In this document: piece by piece, positions 11,441 through 54,613 of the stretch
How positions within the stretch are numbered: the stretch's first letter is position 1
Layout: each line of letters opens with the position of its first letter
Assembly (NCBI GenBank): GCA_054600435.1
Contig: BAAIJX010000013.1
Coordinates: forward strand, 434,001 to 498,000
DNA length: 64,000 nucleotides
Direction of reading: 5' to 3'
From: Neophaeotheca triangularis
Taxonomy: Eukaryota
Position numbers and translations under genes: made by a program
Notes under the pieces: model-generated
Database searches by the model: none
What the model saw: the letters and a program-made list of their open reading frames with translations, nothing else
Told to the model about the DNA's origin: nothing

Positions 11441-14400
11441 GGGGTTGCTGGGTCCTGGAGAGTGGGGATGTTTCTGGTTTCGGTGGTGGCGCCGAGGTGC
11501 CATGGAGACGTTGTCCAAGGGTTTCTGGGAAGTGGTTGCGGTGGGCTGGTTAGTTGTGCGATTGATTGAACCCGCCATCGGCGTGCTGTCCGCTTTACAA
11601 CACTCCCAGGCACGGAGCTGCAGGGAAACACGCACGGCCAGTGTTTCTACAAAAAATGAAGAAACACGACCCAACCTACCCAAAAGCAAAACAAAACAGA
11701 ACACCGAATACCCTCCCCTCTCCACGACCTCGGCGACGATAACCAACTCCCGCTCCAAATCCACCATTGCAAGTTTTCGCTCCCCAGGCCTTTTCCATGG
11801 CTCACAGCATCGTCAGAAAGGCGAACCGACGAGTAGAAATATCGCCGGAAGACGCTCTCGAACGTATTCTCTCGAGCCTTGAGAGTGCTTCCGGCAATAA
11901 TCATGTTCTCTTGGACTTCAACTACCAACACCCCAGAGCGGCCGCTTCTCCGCGAAAGCCGGGCGGCTCTCAGCGGGACGCGAGAAAAACAGCAGCGATC
12001 GCCGAGGAGAGGCCTTGAGCTCGCTTTGCGTGCCGTGCTCCCAGCGACGGCGGTTGTTCCTTTTCGCTCCGCTCGCGAGCAGTCTGCTCTCCGTTGTCTG
12101 GGTCTTGTAACTCCCACCAGACCATCGACGAGCCATGGGAGAGTCAGTGCCGACTCCTGCCATCTTCACTCACGCTCTTTGCGCTAGCGAGTGATTCGGC
12201 TGTCTTTCGGTTTGCAAACGTCGTCAGCGCCGTCGATAAGGAGTGACCGGCTTGACATGATCTTGCTGGGAACAAGCGTCGTGGGCTCTACATGACGAAA
12301 TACGGAATGCCGGTTTTTACGCAGGATACAGTAGCGTTGCAAAGCCGTGCAAGCTCGCGAGCAATAGCATAAGTGACCATAACTTAGTGTACACTACCTT
12401 CTCGTAGTCGCCGAAAAGGCAAGAACGACGTCGCAATTCCTCTAGGGAAGATGGATTTACTTACCCCAGTGAAGGTCATGTTGCCTTTGTCGGGGAGCTA
12501 CAACACTATTGCAACCCGGGCTTTGAGGCTTTGGTAGGGTGGTGGAATAGACTTGTCAATGGAGAAGATTTGAGTAGGGAGACTTGGCTCGGGAGGCTTA
12601 GGTGAGGCTATTACGAGTGGAGAGTGGTCGGGAACGACTATGTTTCCGCGGGTCTAGGGAGCGTAGCGTTAGGTATCTCGAAGCTTGGTGAGCTCTCTTC
12701 CTTTCCGTCCCATGGGGTTTTTCCTCTTGCTCTTGCTGGACTATAGGTGAGTCGGATCGGGGATTTTTGAGAGACGCCGCTGCTGTAGTGTCGTCTGCTT
12801 TGGCTTCTATGCCTTTGCTGCCTCTCTCTCGAGCGGTCTCGAGCTTTCGCAGCTCGCAATACTGGCTCCGGGGTACAGCTTCCAGGGCGCGATTGTGGAT
12901 ATGGACTTCTACCAGGCTCGAGGCGATGTGACACTATGGCTCAGATCAGCCGACAACAGTAGCATCGCGTCCAGGAGAGTTTCTCGTGATGTTACCTTGC
13001 TCAGGTCCTACCGAAAGGCGCTCCATGGCCTGCAGTAGTAGCATGTTCAGTCAGCACCTTAGGTGAGGATGTCGTAGTTGCGCACCCCTCGTAGGGCTGT
13101 TAGCGTTGGTCTCTCCTCGCGCATGAGGGGGCTGTGTACAGAGGTAGGTACAGCAGATCTTCTGGTGGTTCGGGCGATTGAGTTCTTCTTTGCATGCTCT
13201 TCCTTTTCTAGAGAAGCTTGTGGTGATCGACTACTGACTGGATTGCGTCCTATACGTTGTAGTCCCAGAGACGCTCTCTATGTAGCTCGCTATTAACGTA
13301 AGATTGGCTCACTGATTGTTCTCATGATAACGATTGATAGCGCCGCAGGGGTCAGTCCTCTGCACCCAGTTTGCTTTGGCCGCTCATGATGTATAGCCCG
13401 TGCTCTTTGCGTAGGCTGCAAACGGATAGAATAGACGAAGGCATCAACCGAAAAGGGAAGACATCTGAACCATGTTGGATCAAAGCCAGTCCGTAACGGG
13501 TGTGTGGCTGCCACACTTCGCCTGTGCTACCAGATACTCATGGATTGGCTTTCGCATGGATGCTCATGCAGCATGCTCTTCTGCAAGCCACTGGAAACAT
13601 ACAACGGTACGTGTGCGTGACTTCTTGCTACGCGAGAAGCCTATATACACGGGGCGGCCGTCGCAGAAACTCTTTGCAGGGATGTATCATGTCGGGCTGT
13701 TGTAGGCCGGCTTGCTTGTTTTTGAGACTCCCAGTCATTCGTACCTAGGTAAGTAGGTAGTATGCGTATGCGTATGCGACGGGATGACGATGCAATAACT
13801 GACGGAAGGATTGGATGTTCAAGGATGTCGTAGGATCTAAGTATGGATGCTCGGTATGCAGATGGAGGTCGTCATGTCCATGTAGCGGGTACGGTCTGAC
13901 AACGTGATCACAGGGAGATGGTCGATCATGCTCCCGGCCATGATTGTTGTTGATAGGTAGAGCAAAGTAGAGGACTGCCTGTCTGCTGGCAGTGAGGGTG
14001 ATTTCCGTAAGGCATCAAGGCACCAAGGCAGCATCCTCTCGTAGGGCAGTAGGGCTTACCCGTCTTGGTTGAAAGTTGGATCGAAGCTCGATGGAAGCCG
14101 ATCAAACTCCCCGCCCTTCGCTCTTGGCCCGCCGCTCCCGCCTGCCGCCTGAGACTGTGAAAGGTTGCTTGCGACGCCGGCCTAGCGCAAACAAGTCTAA
14201 CCGATTACTACTCTACTTACTCTTCACTCTCACTTAGTACTAACGTTACTACTCTTCAGCCTCCAGCCTATCTTGCTACCCTGAACCTTGCAGCAGCAGT
14301 ACGGTACTCGCGGTCGCTAAGCCTCGTCACCATCAAGTACCCCTCCATACCATACCGTACAGCCAAACGACCCCTCATCCTAGCTTTCGTCCGAGTAGGA

Positions 14401-14529
14401 TAAATATACTGCCCACCGCCTTGGGATACGCCTGACCCGTACAAGATCATCAGAGAGTGTCACCTCTCTCGGCAATAGCCTTGCCAGGCGCCTCGAGGTA
14501 AAGGCATTACCTGAAACCTACCGCCCGCC

Positions 14530-16421
14530 ATGTCCTTTTTCCCCGGCCAAGGATATCACAACCAGCATCAAGGCTACCAACAACCTCCTCCACAGCAGTA
14601 CGGTGGATACCAGCAACCTCCCCCTCAGCAATATCCGTAAGTCAACCAGGGTAATGCAGATCAAGCCTGGTCGCTAAGAATGCCCGCAGCCCCTACGGTC
14701 AGCACCCACCTCCTGGAGCACCGTATGGCGGGCCTCCTCAGCCGCCCTACGGTGGCTACCGCCCCTCCCCGCAACCTGGATATGGCGGATATGGTCCCCC
14801 ACCTGGAGCTCCTGCGCCCCACGGTGGTCCACCCCAACAACACTACGGGGTGCCGATGAGTAAGCAGAACAAGAGCAGCATTTGTACAGGAAACAAGGAC
14901 TGACCAAGCGCCAGACGGAGGGTATGGAAGACCACCGCCACCACCCCCGCAACAAGCCCAAGGTTTTGGCCATGGCGCACCAAACAGTTACTCGTTCCAG
15001 TACTCCCAATGCAACGGAAAGCGGAAAGCTTTGCTGATCGGAATCAACTATTTCAACCAGCGCGGACAGCTCAGGGGATGCATCAATGATGTCAAAAACA
15101 TGTCGGCCTACCTCAACGAGCATTGGAACTATAAGAGAGAGGATATGGTAGCATTGACGGACGACCAACAAAACCCCATGAGCCAGCCGACCAAGCAAAA
15201 CATCCTGCGAGCCATGCACTGGCTGGTCAAGGATGCACAGCCAAACGACTCGCTCTTCTTCCATTACTCTGGCCATGGTGGTCAAACCAAAGATTTAGAT
15301 GGAGATGAGGATGACGGATACGACGAGGTCATCTACCCGGTGGACTTTAGGCAAGCTGGACATATTGTGGACGACGAGATGCATCGTATCATGTACGTGG
15401 AGAGGATACACGGCGAAGAAAAGCATCAACTAATATACTGTCCAGGGTACAATCTCTCCGACCCGGTGTCAGACTAACAGCCATCTTCGACTCCTGCCAC
15501 TCCGGCTCCGCCCTCGACCTCCCCTACATTTACTCCACCCAAGGTGTCCTCAAAGAACCCAACCTCGCCAAGGAAGCCGGTCAAGGTCTCCTCAGCATGA
15601 TCGGAGACTACGGCCGTGGAGACGTCAGCAGTATAGCTTCGACGGCCATGTCGCTTTTCCGGAAAGCGCGCAGCGGCGATGAGGTGTACCAGTACAATTT
15701 GCGCACCAAGACTTCCCCTGCAGACGTCGTCATGTGGAGCGGCAGCAAGGATGACCAGACTTCGTATGTTGAGCCCCTGTTTTTTAATGAGCCCCTGGTG
15801 CCCTTTGAGCCAATCGTAATCCCCGGCATTGGTGCGGTGGTGCCGTACGAGGATATCTACATGCCGTACAGGGACATTCGCGGCAATGTTTTACTTTGAC
15901 TTTGGCGCGCTGCGTTCCCGGGCAATTGTTTCTCGAGCTCGGCGCTAGCGGTGTTCTGCATCTGTAGTGATAGTGTTCCGGCGTAAAACATCCCACGTCT
16001 CCCCGCCGAGAAGGGCTTCCACGGAAGCAGCTTCGAGGCGCGGGGACGACGAGTTGCGTTGGACACTTCACCTCAGCGAGCCCCGACCAGATTATTTTGA
16101 AACTTCACGAAATGTTCCGCTAACTTATCGACTCTCTACAGGACCGACGCTAATATCGCCGGCAAAGCGACGGGCGCCATGTCGTACGCTTTCATCAGCG
16201 CCATCAAGAAGAACCCGCAGCAGAGCTACGTGCAATTGCTCAATTCGCTGCGGGACGAGCTGGATGGCAAGTATGAACAGAAGCCGCAGCTGAGCTGTAG
16301 TCATCCGCTTGGTGAGTTTCTCCCCAATTTAGCTATAGTGATCGTGATGCCGGATGGCGTGGGAGAACTATAGTCTTTGCTGACTTGCTGCACAGATACA
16401 AATTTGCTGTACGTGATGTAG
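14530..16421 (+). CDS. MCA1: Type I metacaspase, 6 exons
   Basis: Q/P/G/Y-rich N-terminus, [17 protein letters not shown], catalytic HYSGHG and [42 protein letters not shown]. Introns 14637-14689, 14860-14914, 15393-15445, 15764-16141, 16312-16395. Confidence 0.95.
15967..16071 (+). other. Long RNA stem-loop inside metacaspase intron 4
   Basis: Nested pairings read by eye: GUGA/UCAC, AGUGU/ACACU, CC/GG, GGCGUAA/UUGCGUU, CGUC/GACG, UCCCCG/CGGGGA, GAAG/CUUC, GCUUC/GAAGC closing a CACG loop. Confidence 0.6.
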
Positions 16422-17628
16422 CGAGCCGACTGCAAGCGCCAGCGCGTGGTGAGACTTGGACTTGCGCCGTTTTGTGGTCTTGGGAGAACAACCGACCGCC
16501 TCGGCTTCGGAAAAGTGCAAGCGAGGTGTCGAGCCACACCTATTACATACGTCTACGCATGGCGCCGTGGTCGTTTGGCCTTGTAGCCTTTTGAATTTGC
16601 CGTAGATACCCACGAGAAACGGGAGCACGATAATCGAGGAGGCAGGAGTCTACGAGCGTCTTGCATGCTTGGGGGTTCGGCTTTGGCTTCAGCGCCCTTT
16701 TGTACGGGCAAGGGTGATTTGTAGATACAGTACCCGTGGCCGTGGGAGCTTTCCGATGCTGAAGGCCATTCTGCATTTCCCCCCTGAAGTGTCGAAGTAC
16801 TCACTCTCAAAGGCCTCTTCGACCGGCTCGCCGCTTCTCGTAAGGAGATAATGGTCGTCTAAGGTAAATGGCACAAGTCAGCTTCGCCAGCGGCTCGCCA
16901 CTTCTGTCTGCGTCGCAGTGGGTTGGAAGTAATTGTTGATGGTCTGTCTGCTGGCATGCATAAGTACAACCTTTCTGTCGGTGACATACTACGCCTCTGT
17001 ACCCGTCCCTCAAGCGCGGCGCTCAACAGGGCAGCAGGGCATACATGGGAGGTCTGGAACCCGCAGCGCGCCATTGGTAACTCTGCTAGCCGCCGTTTGT
17101 CCCTCCCTGCTGTCTTGCATAGTTTGCAGCTTTTACGCGAGAGCGAGAGCGAGCGTGGCACAGTCGGAATCGTCAAACGAGATGTTGATTATTCTTCCAT
17201 GACTACTTAGGTTGTAGTAACGAGTCGGCTCCACGCTATTGGCGCAAGCAAGGACTACCTTAGTTACCTAGGTGGCTGTCCTTAGGGTCAACGAGTCGCG
17301 ACAACCTAAGGTGGGCTCGGCACGTGCTCGGATCACTTGTTGTTCTGGGGATCATCTGCTCTTCCAATTTCCCCGCTCTCATGACGAGCCTCCACTAGGA
17401 CCACTACCTAAAGGTACCTTGCCTGACTAGGAGGTACTGCCGTGCTGCAGCTGGACCACTTCACCTCGTTATTCTTATTTTTCTTGACCTACCGCCCGCC
17501 CGCCCGCCCTTCTCGCTGCCATGCCGAACTTACCGCCGAGCCTCTGTTCGCCATGACTCGACCTTGTCAAGACGCTACCAGCCTACCAGCCTACCTCCAT
17601 TAGGAAGATGGAAGATGGGCAGAGAGAT

Positions 17629-17653
17629 AGAGAGAAAGAGAGAGAGAGAGAGA
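17629..17653. repeat. (AG)n microsatellite, imperfect
   Basis: agagagaaagagagagagagagaga. Confidence 0.8.
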
Positions 17654-18280
17654 CAGATTGGCATTCTATCATAGCATGAGGCTGGCGAGCCGCGGTAAGT
17701 GTAATGACCCAGCCCGTTTCTTTCATTTGAAGAGAGAGTAGGAGGTAGTGCCTCCTAGTAGTAACTATTTCTTTCCGAGGCTATCGAATTTCCCACGGCC
17801 GTAGAGGATCAATAGGAACTAGCTCGGCTACCCGGCGCGCGGGTATGCTGGACAAGACGTAATACACCAACTAGCTACCTAGGTACCTTACCTTGTGTTC
17901 GCCGTTGCTTGTTACCTCCGTACGTATGTACATTGGATGCGGCGCCCGTCTGGAATCTTTGGATGCTACAACAACGCCCCGCCATGTGGAGGCGGTGGAG
18001 CTTATTGGACGGTAGCGGAGTCTACGGCTAGTCGACTATGCAAGCCTGCATACAATATCATTCGGCGAGTGGGCAGTAGTCAGTACTGCTTTGCGCAGGT
18101 CCAAAAGCTAAGTTATGATCATGAGCTAAAGGTCGGGAGGGTTGCCTGCGTCCCTGTACCTTGCGTCTTTTTACCGACTCTCTTCCATTTCCTTCCTCTC
18201 CTCTACGTGCCGTTGTCCTCTCACTCCCTCCCCCATCCCCCAACCCCCCATCCCCCCAAGAGAGAGGAAGAAACCCTACC

Positions 18281-21734: not shown

Positions 21735-23863
21735 TTAGAAGGCAGTGTCCTCGCACGTGTTGGTGTTGGTATCGCAACGGATCGCCAGACCGGGCGTGAC
21801 TATGGTCTCGGAGTAAGAATATTGGTTGAAGAGCCATTCCCCCGACTCGGTTTCTGTGTTGTAAAAAGATGAAATTTGATTAGCACACATTCCACAGTAA
21901 AGCGAGACGGTTCACGCTTAAGACTCACCTCCTTGCGTGCCGACAAGGTTTTTCGAAAACCCAGGACTGCCGATTTGGAAGTAGCGGTACACAAACACCC
22001 CGGGCTCCTCGGCATCGTACGTGACGGTGAATTGGAAGATGTCGAAAGCGACGGCGCCTCGCGAGAGGAAGTATTCGAAAACAACGCTCGTGCCGTCGAC
22101 TTGGTAGAAGATGCCCTGTCGAGGATCGACATCTGCGTTCTGCGCCATGTCGTCCCAGAAGGGGAAGATGGTGTTGCGGGGGACGGTGTCCGCCGGTAGC
22201 GGCTCGGGTGCGTATTCGTCGGAGCCGTCGAGGATGGAGAAGAGGCCGTTGGTGGAGAGGTAGACGGTGGAGGACTCGACGCCGTAGATGCGGATTGGGA
22301 AGTCGAGGTCGATGGCGACGAAGTTGTCGTCTTGCCGTGCTGGCAAATCTTCGCCGAAACTGCCCCGAATGCCGTCTTCGAGGGAGTAGTCATCGGGGTA
22401 CTCTTCCGGTGGAGGGAGAGTCCCTGTGTCGCCGTCAGGTGGCGTTGGGTCCTCGGTTGGGGTCGGTGGAGGTGGAGGCGGCGGTGGAGGCGGCGGCGGA
22501 GGCGCAGGTGGTTGCGATGTGGTGGGAGGCAGGGGATCTACTGAAGGCTGCGATGTGGTGGGTGGCAGGGAATAAACCGGTGGCTGAGATGTTGTAAATG
22601 CCGGAGGAGCTGGAACTGAAAGAGTTGAAGTGGTCATCATGTCCGGCGTACCTGGCAAAGAAGTGGTCGCAGATACGCCTGGCGGTGTGTATTGACCGGG
22701 GTCTTCGGGCGGACTGACGCATATACCGAACGCAGTTTGGCATCCCCGAGCTGGGTCACAGAAGCCTGGCTCGGATCCACAAAAGTTGAATTGACTGCAG
22801 CAATCACCAAATCCAGAGCCGGCGCACGTCCAGCTCGATTCGCCACCGCAGATGCCGTTTGGAGATATGGAGTTGGTTGGTTGAGTTGAGTCGACGGCAG
22901 AGGTTGGTGTTTCACCTGGAGATACTGCGGTGGTTGGCTGTTGGATTGGTGGGGTGTACACCGGAGGATCAACAGCCCAATACGTCTGGGTAGACATGCT
23001 CATAGTACTAGTTGCTTCCGGTGGCGTATCCACTGGCGGGCTGCTTTCTCCGGGTCCCGATGGGCTTGACTGACCAGGTGTTGTGTAGACTGGAGGGCTG
23101 GGCGGAGTTATCGTCACCCCATCCGAGACGGACACAGAGCCGGCAGTCGTAGCTGGAGGGGAAATTCCAGGATAGGTTGCTCCGGGCGGTGGGGGGTCAA
23201 CTGCTTATAATCAGACAACTGCTTATCGCAATGCGAACAGGCACGCTTACCGAGTTCAACGTAGAGATTGATCGGACTCCATCCTCGTTCTCGCTCGCCA
23301 TCCGCGCTCCTGAACCTCGCAAGAATAAGCGCGTTGTCGAGGAGTCCAGGAGGTAGCTTATAGAAATGAGCCGTGCCGTTGGTGAAGAAAGGATTGTCCC
23401 AGTAGAGCAGACCTCCACGAACTGTAAAAGTGGTCTCAATGTCCAAGCGATCGTCGCGGATTTCAAAAGCCCGAGCCAGGACGTTTCTGTTGGTACTGAC
23501 GCGGCTGCCATTGGTCGACATCAGTTGCCCATCCATCATGCGGTAGGTGCCGGCCATTGATCGAGTGATCGTAGTGTTGCCATTCCACATAACCCAAGAA
23601 GGGGTCTCAATCTGCCTCCTCGACATGTAGCCTTCGGGGTTGAGCATCTCAACACCAATGATGAATGGCGCGCCGTTGTTGACCGCATCATCATACGGCT
23701 GCGGCACGACAGTAACCGTGGACTGGATTATGGTGGTGGTTCTAGAGGTGTAAATGGCGCTGCAAGTGGCGGGATACTCTGTAACGGTGATAAGCTCTCC
23801 TCGCACGAATTGTGCGATTGAGGCGAGCGCGAGCGTTGCCCACGCTGCCCTTGGGCCAACCAT
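21735..23863 (-). CDS. Secreted modular protein: N-terminal globular domain, S/T/P linkers, hevein-type chitin-binding module (CBM18), poly-Pro, NIDO-like C-terminal domain
   Basis: Signal peptide MVGPRAAWATLALASIAQFVRG; CGG..CAGSGFGDCCSQFNFCG..C..GCQTAFGIC; C-terminal FPIRIYG..VYLSTNGLFS..IFPFWDD. Introns 23201-23250 and 21854-21928 give a continuous frame ending CDTNTNTCEDTAF*. Confidence 0.8.
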
Positions 23864-38745: not shown

Positions 38746-39590
38746 TTGTTCGAGCGAAACTTTTCTTTTTTGAGCGTAAAGAGCGCTATTTTGTAGGATG
38801 TAGAGTATTGAGTGTGTATCATTATTACTGCTTGTGGTGTTTGCGAGATGAAGCATCTCCGAGGAGTTCGATCACTCAGCCGGGAACACAAATCATGTTG
38901 CATCCGGACGACAAAGCGACAGGCATGAACAATGCAGCTGTAGAGCTTCGACAAAAACGCAGACAGCCAATGCGCAAGACACAAGACGAACCGACTTCGC
39001 CAGGTCTGTTTCAAAGGTCACCAAGACATATCGAACCGTGATGTAGCGCAAATAATAACAATGTCCCAATGCTACCTTGATTATTAGCTATCCCCTCACC
39101 CAATAAATCGTTCAAACATCCAAACACCAAACCGCCTCGGTCTGCTGTCATCATCATCATCGCCTGAAGTAAATTTCGGGGCACGGACGCCGGACTTCCG
39201 CTTTGGCTTAGAAGTGAAGGAGAGAGCTTCATTTCACCGCGACCACCCCCTCTGTCCTCCATCATCCACGACACCGCCGGACCGGACGAAAAACTCCCAC
39301 CGACAACGCCAAGTCACCCTTGCGGCCTCGCCGCATCGACAACTCCCCACCGCTCCGCTCGCCGCCCGTCCCCCTAGACAGCACCACCGCAAAGCGGCCG
39401 AGCATCAGCCACCCCAGCGCATCTTCGCGGCGCAAACACCCCCCCTTCTGCTCGCGGCGCCCGCACACACTCCAGCGGAAACGGTCATCGTACCTCCCCC
39501 AAGTCCTCGGGCGGCCTTTGTCCTCTTTTTTGCTTCCCCCTTCTTTCGCGAGCGCATCCAGACCCCAAACAAACCTTCCCCCAACGGTAC

Positions 39591-51043: not shown

Positions 51044-52769
51044 CTAATCCCCCAACCCAAAACTCCTAACCCTAGACCAATAAAACGCGCGATCATTCTT
51101 CAACCCAAACTCACCCCAATCATCCGTCAAGCGATTATAGCTCCAAAACCCCTTCCAGCTCAACTTATTATTCCTGGTCCCTTTACCCGCATGCCCCAGA
51201 CGGAGTTGCAGCTTATACGTATACTTGGAGATGACGCCTTCGGTCTCGATGTGGAGGGTGCCTTCATCTTCTTGTTCTTGTTCTTGTTCTTCTCGTAATG
51301 GTGTTTGGTTGGCGGTGGTCGATTGAGCTTGGCGGCGATGGAGGGAAGCGGGCCCGCTGAGCCGCCAGCGGCCTTTGAGGGCATCTTTCATGACGCTCGA
51401 GGGCATCGCCGTGAGGTGTTGCGTCTGACTGTGGGCAGCGACGTTGGCTTTTGTGAGGTGGTGGACGACGTCGGCGGGCTCGGAAGTGGTGAGCAGCGAG
51501 ATGCAGCTGCCGTCGCGGAAGAAGCGCAGGTAGCGGAAGTAGGTCACAACGTGCACGGGGACGCCCCAGGAGAGCGTGTTGGTGCTCGTGGCGCCTGGTC
51601 GCGTGTAATTTACCGTGCTGATGTAGCAGCCGTTGAAGCGAATGCGCGGGCGAGCGCGGAACATGTGGAGGTATGAGGAATATTGGGTTTGGAGGAGGTG
51701 GGCCGTGGTTGTGGCTAGAGCAATGGAGGGGTCTGGTGGAAGGGGGAGATCAAGGTTATCGTCGGCTTGGAAATCATAGTAAGGGTCGTCGTTGAGGTAT
51801 CGGGCAATTTCGTCGTTGGCTTCGAGCGAAAAACCTTCAATGTCGCAGGTGTAATTGTACTTCATTGCGCCAAAGCCGAATTCACTGCCTAGAGTTACCC
51901 GTCTCCACACGCTTTCCTCGGTCAGTACCAGGTATGCTAGGCGCTTGCAGACTTGAGCCATTCGGACGAAGGCAGCCACATCGTTGACTGCCACCTCGGT
52001 CAGAATATGAGTCAAAATCTCTTCTGGCAGGTCGGCGAATGGAGATGGTTCTTGTGGAGAAGCGTCTGTGGGAGGCTCTTTCGCTTCAATGCGCATGCTG
52101 GAAAAGTCGCCAATCATCTGTTGAAGGCTTTGAGGTAGGCCACCACTACCATGTAAGGAGTGATGGGCAGTATTCGGTACAGCAGGAGCGGCATTGGAAG
52201 GGTTTGGGTTGGATGGTTTGGGTTTGAAAGCAGAAGGAGGAAAGTGTTTCATCTTGTAGGCTTCGTGGACGCCATCGTCAAGCTACAACCTACCTTAGCC
52301 GGGTACACTACGAACGATACGACTGACCTGGGCCAGACGTAGCAAAGGAAGGGCCTACCTTGAAAGCCTTGCGGTAGTGGGCAAGACTGTCACCGAGTTG
52401 GCCGGCTGTTTCCTTATCGACTGCTCGCTCGTAATGCTCGAGGGCTGACGAAGGCTCCCTGAACCGACTTCTGTCAATCTTTTGACTCTCCCCACCCAGT
52501 TTGAGCACTTCTTCCTTGTCCGGCAGGTCATGATAGGCCTTGGGCTCAACTTCGTCTGAGCCATCAATGGCAGGCTCTCTCCGCCGTGCTGTCGACGGTC
52601 CTGTCGCTGTGCTTGACTGTCCATCTTGTCGTCTTTGCTGCCGCCTGATGGGGACTGTCGCGTTGCTTGATGCTGTTTCCGGCTTTTTGTTCCTGGCCTC
52701 GACCTCTTCGCGCCATTGCCGGCGAAAGGCCTCTAGCTCTGCTGCTGTGTCTGGAGCTTGTTCTGCCAT
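51044..52769 (-). CDS. HRT3: F-box protein Hrt3/Pof7 (FBXO9-like)
   Basis: ELEAFRRQWREEV, YERAVDKE..GQLGDSL..YRKAFK|LD, F-box LPEEIL, RPRIRFNGCYIS, VTYFRYLRFFRDG; intron 52283-52358. Confidence 0.9.
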
Positions 52770-53270: not shown

Positions 53271-54613
53271 ATGGCGACAACACAATCCCCAGGACAAGCC
53301 CACAACAGAATACCGCCTGGAAATGGCGACCTCGACTCTCCCTCGGCTCCGCGTATTTCGGGCAGCGCACCGACAACGACGGACATATCGATTGGGCAGA
53401 AGATGCTATCCGCAGTGTCCGGCAGCATCCTGACATCGTTGCTCGGTAAGAAACGGACAACAGCAGACAAGGGTCTCAAGAGAACATATACTGAGACTAT
53501 GCCACAGTCACCCCCTTGGATGTCGTCCGCGTACGGCTACAAGCGCAGCAGGGTCCGTCTCCCAGTACCCGTCTCCCCTCCTTCATTCAACTCCCCCCGA
53601 ACCTAGGTGTGAGCGCGTGCTGCAGAGAAGTCTTCTGGGTGCAGAACCAGTCCCAGTTCTGCGTCGCGTCCCCTCCCAGCACCGCCGTCATGGATGAGAT
53701 GATCATCTCTGACTGTGCGGCAGAGGAGTCCCAACGGCGCACCTTTAACTCCACCCTCGACGGCCTGCGCAAAATCTCCCGCAACGAAGGCATCCTCACG
53801 CTTTGGAGGGGTCTCAGCCCAACTCTCGCCATGGCCGTGCCCGCCAATGTCATCTACTTCGCCGGCTACGACTGGCTCCGCACCAGCCAGCTCTCCCCAA
53901 TGGCCAACCGCGTCAGTGACACCTACGCCCCGCTCGTCGCAGGCTCCACCGCCCGCGTCGGCGCCGCAATCTGCGTCTCCCCGATCGAAATGCTGCGAAC
54001 ACGCATGCAAGCCTCCTCCGCAGGCGAAGGCGGCGTGCTGCGCGCCACAATCGGCGGCCTCCGCGAAATGGTCAGCAACGAAGGCTACCGCTCTCTCTGG
54101 CGCGGGCTAAGTCTTACCCTCTGGCGCGACGTCCCCTTCTCCGCTTTCTACTGGTGGGGCTACGAATACGGGCGCGACCGCTTACACCAAGCGCGCGAAA
54201 ACGCTCGTCCGCACGACCCCTCGAACCCTGCACGCTCGCGCTCTCGCTCCGACCTCTCCCACCGCGCCGTCCTCATCGACTCCTTCATCGCCGGCGCAAG
54301 CTCCGGCGCCATCGCCGCTCTAACCACCACCCCCTTCGACGTGGGAAAAACCCGGCAACAGACCATCCTCCACTCGAGAGAGGGCGCGCAAATGAGCGCC
54401 GAGCAATTACGAAACCTTCCCGAGAACCGCACGATGCCGCGTTTCCTGTTGCACATTTTCCAGACGGAGGGGTTGGGCGGCTTGTTCAAAGGCTGGGCGG
54501 CGCGGTGTCTGAAGGTCGCGCCCGCGTGCGCGATCATGATCAGTAGTTATGAGATTGGCAAGAAGATGGCCAGTCGGGCGAATGAGGGGAAGGCTGTTGC
54601 GGAGCAGGATTGA
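53271..54613 (+). CDS. MTM1: Mitochondrial carrier Mtm1 (SLC25A39/40 family)
   Basis: QKMLSAVSGSILTSLL|VTPLDVVRVRLQ, CCREVF loop, LWRGLSPTL, RDVPFSAFYW, APACAIMISSYE; intron 53446-53507. Confidence 0.92.

Follow-up and report, generated by a model that had tools for sequence, protein, structure and literature searches.

A candidate retainable intron of a fungal metacaspase gene combines a conserved RNA hairpin with an in-frame protein tail

We report on a long intron in the metacaspase gene of Neophaeotheca triangularis, found in a stretch of 64,000 nucleotides (nt) of contig BAAIJX010000013.1 (positions 434,001 to 498,000; hereafter the window, to which all positions refer). The fourth intron of this gene contains a conserved, covarying hairpin that is an RNA structure without a described family, while the first codons of the intron continue the upstream reading frame into a tail that ends at a stop codon shared with relatives. 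In our best reading this is a conserved 'retainable' intron of the metacaspase-1 gene in a Neophaeotheca-like dothideomycete, made up of these two modules, and the hairpin is very probably a selected, functional RNA structure tied to the choice between metacaspase isoforms. An earlier note on this DNA had proposed a cryptic acceptor within the intron. Judged by the reading frames of the relatives, the alternative outcome kept by evolution is plain intron retention and not the cryptic acceptor; the in-frame tail had gone unseen in that note.

The window matches N. triangularis (Dothideomycetes, order Neophaeothecales): exon 5 is 100% identical to the database protein P0002, which is so named by its source. 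The gene is laid out as follows (exon 5 and exon 6 in the text are the exons that flank intron 4 on its 5' and 3' side):

14531-16421, + strand: type I metacaspase gene (MCA1/casA type), from the ATG at 14531 to the TAG at 16419-16421 (match to P0002, Pfam)
14531-14636, 14690-14859, 14915-15392, 15446-15763, 16142-16311 and 16396-16421, + strand: metacaspase exons (sequence read against the list of open reading frames, ORFs)
14637-14689 (53 nt), 14860-14914 (55), 15393-15445 (53), 15764-16141 (378) and 16312-16395 (84), + strand: metacaspase introns
15764-16141, + strand: intron 4, 378 nt, phase 2 (between TC and G), beginning with GTATGT, ending in CAG and containing CTAAC at 16120-16124 (sequence and P0002 model)
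16120-16124 and 16139-16141, + strand: branch-site CTAAC and acceptor CAG, both beyond the limits of the hairpin

P0002 matches Pfam Peptidase_C14 (PF00656) with an E-value of 3.3e-43 over profile positions 1-232 of 233, as befits a type I metacaspase, and the catalytic His/Cys motifs HYSGHGG and DSCHSG are visible in the metacaspase sequence. The annotated model removes the 378-nt intron at the same junctions as read here, so that the unusual size of intron 4 (against 53-84 nt for the other four), already pointed out in the earlier note, is borne out by both the gene reading and the model. The branch-site consensus CTRAC and the acceptor YAG are kept in all six complete introns of the group-1 alignment (see below for the groups). 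At the other end of the gene, P0002 reads through the 84-nt last intron (16312-16395); splicing from GTGAGT to CAG restores the conserved end of the family with the stop at 16419-16421, and judging from the sequence the C-terminus of P0002 is probably mis-annotated at this last intron.

The two modules and the adjoining elements of intron 4 are:

15764-15899, + strand: tail, an in-frame continuation of the exon 5 frame up to the stop TGA at 15897-15899 (ORF list, frames, substitution rates)
15937-15954, + strand: conserved block C (window ...GCTCGGCGCTAGCGG; relatives ...CAGCGAGGCGTTGGCGG; group-1 alignment)
15965-15967, + strand: TAG, the cryptic acceptor proposed in the earlier note
15967-16071, + strand: irregular hairpin, 105 nt (folding, folds of homologues, covariation, covariance model)
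15993-15995 (CCA) and 16049-16050 (AC), + strand: conserved 3-nt/2-nt internal loop of the hairpin
15996-16002 with 16042-16048, and 16004-16007 with 16037-16040, + strand: core helices of the hairpin
16020-16023, + strand: apical loop CACG
16037-16062, + strand: 3' arm of the hairpin (GGCGCGGGGACGACGAGTTGCGTTGG), where conservation within the intron is highest (pairwise identity, invariant columns)

The hairpin folds as a single irregular stem-loop, with a long lower stem below the core and the internal loop. Its minimum free energy (MFE) is -53.7 kcal/mol (z-score -5.33), a value matched by 0 of 200 dinucleotide shuffles, which confirms the large stem-loop described earlier. The same energy is reached by 0 of 8520 other 105-nt windows (both strands, step 15, whole window), in a scan where folding the hairpin in its own register gives it a small advantage over the stepped windows. 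The runner-up attains -52.3 kcal/mol at 69% G+C, higher than the G+C of the hairpin. Other most stable 105-nt windows lie at 53926-54105 (-), 39301-39465 (-), 22396-22500 (+) and 51301-51405 (+), with -49 to -52 kcal/mol and a G+C content of 0.65-0.72. The wider description of the intron as highly structured applies to the large hairpin, but much less to its surroundings: the entire 378-nt intron has a z-score of -1.74 (2 of 100 shuffles as good), the tail-coding 5' part (15764-15900) is unstructured (z +0.96) and the 3' part (16072-16141) scores 0.01. Two further hairpins had been claimed, and neither stands out from shuffled sequence: the one at 15908-15950 equals its shuffles (z -0.23 over 15905-15952, 79 of 200 as good), and the small one near 15873-15890 does no better (z -1.54 over 15870-15893, 17 of 200).

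To place the intron among relatives, exon 5 was aligned with 23 named homologues (A1), and this alignment served to fetch 80 metagenome loci, in which exons 5 and 6 were located by script. An intron at the same codon (after the DDQT codons, between TC and G) is present in 50 of the 74 loci that cover both flanking exons, and its length is bimodal: 38 of the 80 loci have a short intron (50-113 nt) and 12 a long one of 318-475 nt (L003, L004, L006, L007, L011, L012, L014, L020, L021, L023, L073 and L078). At this codon 24 of the 80 loci have no intron; some of these are spliced cDNA (complementary DNA) contigs, because the exons of two are identical to those of intron-bearing loci. The remaining six loci end before exon 6, five of them with a long in-frame extension (L001, L013, L027, L040 and L067). 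Exon 5 of L004 is 100% identical to Friedmanniomyces endolithicus proteins, which places this locus in the Mycosphaerellales; since the window matches a species of the Neophaeothecales, the intron type spans at least two orders. A DNA tree of exons 5 and 6 puts L028 as sister to L003 (Shimodaira-Hasegawa-like approximate likelihood ratio test, SH-aLRT, 99), while its deep nodes are too weak to place the long form as ancestral. The intron of L028 measures 65 nt against 475 nt in L003, a difference of about 410 nt, and lacks both tail and hairpin. The two were lost jointly, so the module is dispensable in some lineages. The sequencing runs X8 and X9 align in exons only, with 80% likeness. Between 15394 and 16204 the window counts 809 letters; the corresponding part of the X9 contig, from a distant relative, counts 799, a weak hint of a similarly long intron.

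A homologous hairpin is found in 12 of the 12 long introns, each time in the 3' half of the intron. In ten homologous 135-nt segments the z-scores are -4.44 (window), -8.76, -5.73, -6.91, -2.55, -6.25, -6.96, -5.88, -7.59 and -6.80, with 0 of 200 shuffles as good in nine segments and 1 of 200 in L020. A MAFFT alignment (A2) contains 11 distinct sequences in two clades, namely group 1 (the window, L003, L004, L006, L020 and L073) and group 2 (L011, L014, L021, L012 and L023). RNAalifold on A2 recovers the core helices, and the 14 core pairs used for covariation were fixed from this result. Standard pairs fill 96.8% of the cells at these positions, and shifting the 3' partners by 1-3 columns lowers this share to 38-54%. 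Both sides have changed in 6 of the 14 pairs (for example U-A in six sequences and C-G in five), and the covariation score of 0.529 (0.248 when shuffled) is reached by 0 of 500 shuffles. Pairing in the lower stem is maintained even though its sequence differs between lineages (columns 134-138 of the alignment show A-U, C-G, U-A or G-C). On the 3' side a 2-nt bulge (A, followed by C or U) remains unpaired in almost every one of the 11 sequences, its second base being paired only in the MFE fold of L006. The apical loop is variable: homologues have UUCU, CCUCGC, AUAU, CUCCGC, UGGU and others of 3-6 nt. The CACG tetraloop, taken as a functional cue by the earlier note, is confined to the window (10 of 10 homologues differ).

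A covariance model of the hairpin (R1) was searched over the window and the 80 loci (338,784 nt). It gives 13 full matches at 84-107 bits (the 12 long introns and the window) and the cut hairpin of L027, with weak reverse-strand echoes at the same sites; since R1 matches only these introns, the element is single-copy and gene-specific in the searched sequence. L067 (group 3) ends in a related stem that is cut by the contig end. Elsewhere in the 64-kilobase (kb) window only chance matches of 10-12 nt to the intron are seen. Rfam 15 yields 0 matches at E <= 10 for 14000-18000 on both strands, including none to a family of small nucleolar RNAs (snoRNAs). The suggestion of an undescribed cis-regulatory element or noncoding RNA (ncRNA) is thereby upheld as far as a conserved, single-copy structure with compensatory changes and without an Rfam match is concerned, while its mode of action can be proposed only conditionally (see below).

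Sequence conservation within the intron is concentrated in the hairpin. Over 16038-16057, in the 3' arm, mean pairwise identity is 0.86 among the six group-1 introns, against 0.77 for exon 5 DNA and 0.1-0.4 for most of the intron; block C reaches 0.70. Part of the asymmetry between the arms can be expected, as changes on the G/U strand break pairs and changes in their C/A partners are tolerated by wobble. When the 3' arm was tested with RNAduplex against the 5' splice site, the branch site and the exons for conserved long-range pairing, none of the partners recurred homologously among 10 sequences. The 3' arm also resembles the last part of exon 4 (both contain GGACGACGAG), a lead that was rejected because the arms of the relatives ignore the synonymous changes of their own exon. 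The stem contains no splice signal. About 15 nt separate it from the branch site in L020 and more than 200 nt in L012, and the spacing to the 5' splice site is variable too. In L012 (451-nt intron) some ten tandem units of 17-19 nt (for example CCGACTTGATCCCTTGT and TCGACTTGATCACTTGT) directly follow the 3' arm of the hairpin, at about 1250-1440; this array pushes the branch site more than 200 nt away and seems to have grown from the sequence adjoining the stem. Run X2, from a second strain under the same organism label, covers 15964-16184 with two alternative contigs (48 and 54) at about half depth that show 12 and 6 differences, one of them with a 1-nt deletion at 16041. Alternative contigs are also present over the promoter-side 14325-14473. 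The doubling may stem from heterozygosity, from duplication or, at the inverted repeat, from a bubble in the assembly.

The TAG at 15965-15967 is present at the base of the hairpin and its use as an acceptor would give ...QTSDSVPA-stop, as the earlier note had read, but an acceptor role is unsupported: no TAG occurs at the homologous place in L020, L073 and L027. Retention gives a different picture. The reading frame of exon 5 continues through 44 codons, over the first 135 nt of the intron, up to the TGA at 15897-15899, and the encoded tail ends in ...RDIRGNVLL. Of 8 group-1 sequences, 7 keep this frame open over 39-62 codons to a homologous TGA, and the other two frames mostly stop early; in L073 the tail-end block is lost and the frame is open throughout. 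Six distinct tail ORF lengths are found and all are multiples of 3 (chance 0.004). The start of the tail reads YV[DEN]P.F[PFS][DN]EP, with departures in L004, L020 and L027, and its end is conserved as a peptide ([RT][DN][MI].G[NS][VLI]L[LIVM]-stop), with codon changes typical of coding sequence, such as TTA/TTG/CTG for Leu.

Substitution patterns point in the same direction. Rates of nonsynonymous and synonymous change (dN/dS) in the tail are 0.31/1.50 for L004-L027 (ratio 0.21; 18/15/31 differences at codon positions 1/2/3), 0.39/1.31 for L003-L001 (ratio 0.30; 18/12/20) and 0.36/1.18 for L040-L067 (ratio 0.31; 27/20/38). Summed over these pairs the differences amount to 63/47/89, a third-position excess (chi-square p 0.0011). 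Selection on the tail is much weaker than on exon 5, where dN/dS is 0.03-0.13. As far as these comparisons reach, the tail evolves like protein. For group 2, one pair of equal length has a dN of 0.16 and a dS of 0.72. L073 and L078 keep the hairpin without the conserved end and stop of the tail.

Public models of related species treat the intron inconsistently (spliced, ending in the tail, or with part of the tail fused in frame). P0029 (Teratosphaeriaceae sp. CCFEE 6253) is annotated as ending in the tail (...YLPFRDMHGCVLI) and P0010 ends in ...LHRDINGNVLL. Part of the tail is fused in frame to exon 6 in P0107 (Hortaea werneckii) and P0082 (Saxophila tyrrhenica), and the Friedmanniomyces model P0018 splices the intron. 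Further tail families are formed by P0041/P0115/P0105 and by P0027/P0063/P0066/P0085. The tails of four families (alignment A4) share [YFW]-[LM]-P-x-x-[DN], placed 8-20 residues before a hydrophobic C-terminus; as these tails show no other obvious kinship, this suggests a single short linear motif of old origin.

Retained transcripts probably exist, to judge by two transcript-like contigs. L040 and L067, which are short contigs from two organisms, span the coding sequence from a point close to the N-terminus through to the tail and lack all upstream introns; L067 continues into the hairpin. Genomic gene calls of their relatives P0105 (97% identical to L040 over exon 5) and P0115 (95%) start inside the intron just before exon 5, with ...PRR joined to VKGLKGG and MRR to VKSLKGG at these starts. 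Because the relatives' genomic calls begin in that upstream intron, L040 and L067 look like transcripts that keep only the intron discussed here. Spliced cDNA contigs exist in the same collection, where identical exon rows occur with and without the intron. Exon 6 is conserved as well (protein identity 74-89% wherever a locus includes it, 78-86% among the 12 loci with a long intron), and therefore the spliced form must also be made.

The consequence for the protein follows from the Peptidase_C14 profile of 233 positions: spliced forms cover 1-228 or 1-232, retained-intron forms 1-174 (P0029) or 1-192 (L067). The earlier claim that the fate of this intron decides whether the metacaspase receives its C-terminal region is in agreement with this coverage (174-192 of 233), the part at stake being the last quarter of the caspase domain. 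As predicted from sequence, the short form keeps the prodomain, the p20 part (which contains the catalytic His and Cys) and the beginning of p10, and is without that last quarter. An AlphaFold2 model of P0029 (21-row alignment) is poor, with a mean predicted local distance difference test (pLDDT) of 51.4 and values below 50 in the tail, and is uninformative on the tail.

From these observations a mechanism can be sketched. Most metacaspase transcripts would be spliced and yield the full enzyme, whereas a fraction would stay unspliced, the retained intron adding the tail and stopping at the conserved TGA. The hairpin would be a position-independent cis element, possibly a docking site for a protein that binds a helix or an internal loop, and would let the intron-containing mRNA avoid nuclear retention or decay, so that the short isoform can be translated; its binding partner and its action are what we infer here. 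Such an element for unspliced mRNA fits best because the stem contains no splice signal, the spacings are variable and the spacing expected of a zipper stem fails, and also because compaction of the intron leaves the roughly 240 nt kept past the stop unexplained and L028 lost tail and hairpin together. That the hairpin serves export or expression of unspliced metacaspase mRNA in the manner of a constitutive transport element (CTE) is put forward tentatively, by analogy. In its fullest version, which we consider rather unlikely as a whole, stress-tolerant black fungi of the Dothideomycetidae would make two metacaspases from one gene. The second would be truncated, tail-bearing and probably non-proteolytic, would modulate the full enzyme or the handling of aggregates, and would be translated from an unspliced mRNA that depends on the hairpin for export, stability or translation; the hairpin would then be the first fungal counterpart of the CTE and a new RNA family.

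Several points weigh against this proposal. To our knowledge no export element of this kind is known in fungi, and no likeness of the hairpin to the sequence or structure of the CTE was shown, the hairpin being without any Rfam match. Coding is not shown for group 2 (L011, L012, L014, L021 and L023), where the tail is short and no stop interrupts any of the three frames, and the state of L073 and L078 means that the hairpin can persist without a complete tail. The transcript status of L040 and L067 is deduced from their gene structure, and the sole RNA contig of the organism itself (run X3, 233 nt) lies within exon 5 (15471-15703) and carries no junction information. As for the hairpin, independent covariation events are few because most double changes separate the two clades; folding of sense versus antisense strands in 10 homologues favours sense in six, antisense in three and neither in one; and the conservation of the 3' arm can follow from the wobble rules, so that it need not mark a protein-binding sequence.

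Among the rival explanations, the hairpin might act on the pre-mRNA only, as a splicing tuner that either compacts the long intron, so that production of the essential full-length mRNA remains possible, or recruits a factor which sets the level of retention (perhaps under stress). Most experimentally known conserved intron structures of yeasts alter splicing or retained-intron levels, according to the excerpted text of PMC12350175, and the persistence of the hairpin in L073 and L078 despite the loss of the tail end would suit this role. So would the tail part itself, which must stay unstructured (z +0.96), so that any compaction must come from the rest of the intron. Nonetheless, the position rule for zipper stems fails: the linkers amount to 203 nt (15764 to 15967) plus 48 nt (16071 to 16120), or 251 nt, against the 42-85 nt allowed in the excerpt (Rangan et al. 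2025, PMC12350175), where zipper stems are moreover only 20-30% conserved in sequence. With no splice signal in the stem and a branch-site spacing of about 15 to over 200 nt, and given that compaction explains neither the ~240 nt kept past the stop nor a stem more conserved than the exons, we regard splicing tuning as somewhat unlikely.

A precursor of a small RNA or other ncRNA, in which the hairpin is excised (Dicer-like or otherwise) to act in trans with the 3' arm as mature product, seems improbable. Its shape is precursor-like (a stem of about 45-50 base pairs, a variable apex and one conserved arm), the flanks are unconserved and the position within the intron is free, but the element is confined to one gene and intron, G/U wobble accounts for the asymmetry of the arms, nothing in Rfam matches at E <= 10 and no conserved snoRNA-type boxes are seen by eye next to the stem. 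The long, stable and conserved intronic duplex could also be read as a decay signal, that is, as an RNase III-type target by which unspliced transcripts or lariats are destroyed and leakage of truncated protein is limited. Yeast Rnt1 indeed cleaves intronic stem-loops of some ribosomal-protein pre-mRNAs, but it recognises AGNN tetraloops and the variable apical loops found here include none of this type; purifying selection on the tail further argues that the unspliced mRNA is meant for translation, which makes a decay signal very improbable. Finally, the hairpin could have no function at all, being an inverted repeat left by an insertion (a hairpin transposon or a relic of a miniature inverted-repeat transposable element, MITE) or a chance palindrome. 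Long inverted repeats do arise from mobile elements, and in strain X2 the hairpin region has 6-12 differences per 221 nt, about the same as the rest of the intron. This explanation is close to refuted by the single copy in the window and 338 kb of related loci with no extra covariance-model match, by conservation in at least 10 distinct sequences that include the window (matching the Neophaeothecales) and a locus matching the Mycosphaerellales, and by compensatory changes, G-U pairs and an identity above that of the coding exon.

Leaving aside snoRNA hosts and the autoregulation of ribosomal proteins, the spliceosomal introns of fungi rarely contain RNA structures that are conserved and covary. 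Here such a structure is coupled to a selected in-frame tail, in a gene with a central part in the death of fungal cells and in the quality control of proteins. If the proposal is true, it provides a new family of cis-acting RNAs whose read-out is clear, namely in what ratio two mRNAs are made and what becomes of them, as well as a natural short metacaspase isoform with a testable role as inhibitor, scaffold or stress form. Intron retention in filamentous fungi would then be a maintained route to a second protein and not only noise or fodder for decay. The inconsistent public annotation of related metacaspases is flagged at the same time.

With respect to known systems, literature searches over titles and the beginnings of abstracts returned no paper on a fungal metacaspase intron, isoform or hairpin. 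No conserved boxes of box C/D or H/ACA snoRNAs are apparent by eye in A2 and the group-1 alignment; an ACA follows the 3' arm in the window and L004, but not in L003, L006 and L073. Animal caspase-2 and caspase-9 are known in short forms from alternative splicing, where a full protease is accompanied by a form without part of the catalytic domain that may modulate it. The metacaspase resembles them in that one gene would give a full and a shortened protease, and differs in that the route is intron retention and that metacaspases are only distant relatives of caspases. The structured introns of S. cerevisiae (zipper stems, downstream stems and 'long stems') offer a likeness in that such stems can change retained-intron levels, in the excerpted text of PMC12350175. 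Unlike the zipper stems of that excerpt, with their shorter linkers and low sequence conservation, the present hairpin has a 3' arm that is 86% identical, covaries across orders and sits in an intron that encodes a conserved tail. The closest parallel is intron 10 of NXF1 (Tap) with its CTE, and the CTE of Mason-Pfizer monkey virus (MPMV): as excerpted from PMC4338338, retention of the NXF1 intron extends the reading frame by a few codons up to a stop, and export and expression require a structured element that is conserved. In both cases the first intron codons extend the ORF to a stop and would give a shorter protein (retention here being suggested by L040 and L067), and in both a conserved stem with an internal loop lies deeper in the intron, strikingly conserved between distant species amid unconserved sequence (PMC4338338, excerpt). 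The systems differ in organisms (fungi against vertebrates), in gene and in intron size (0.3-0.5 kb here against 1.8-4 kb in the same excerpt), and the function proposed here is presumed from the likeness. The hairpin thus belongs to no described family, but it is of a kind that is already known elsewhere, namely a conserved structured element in a retained intron.

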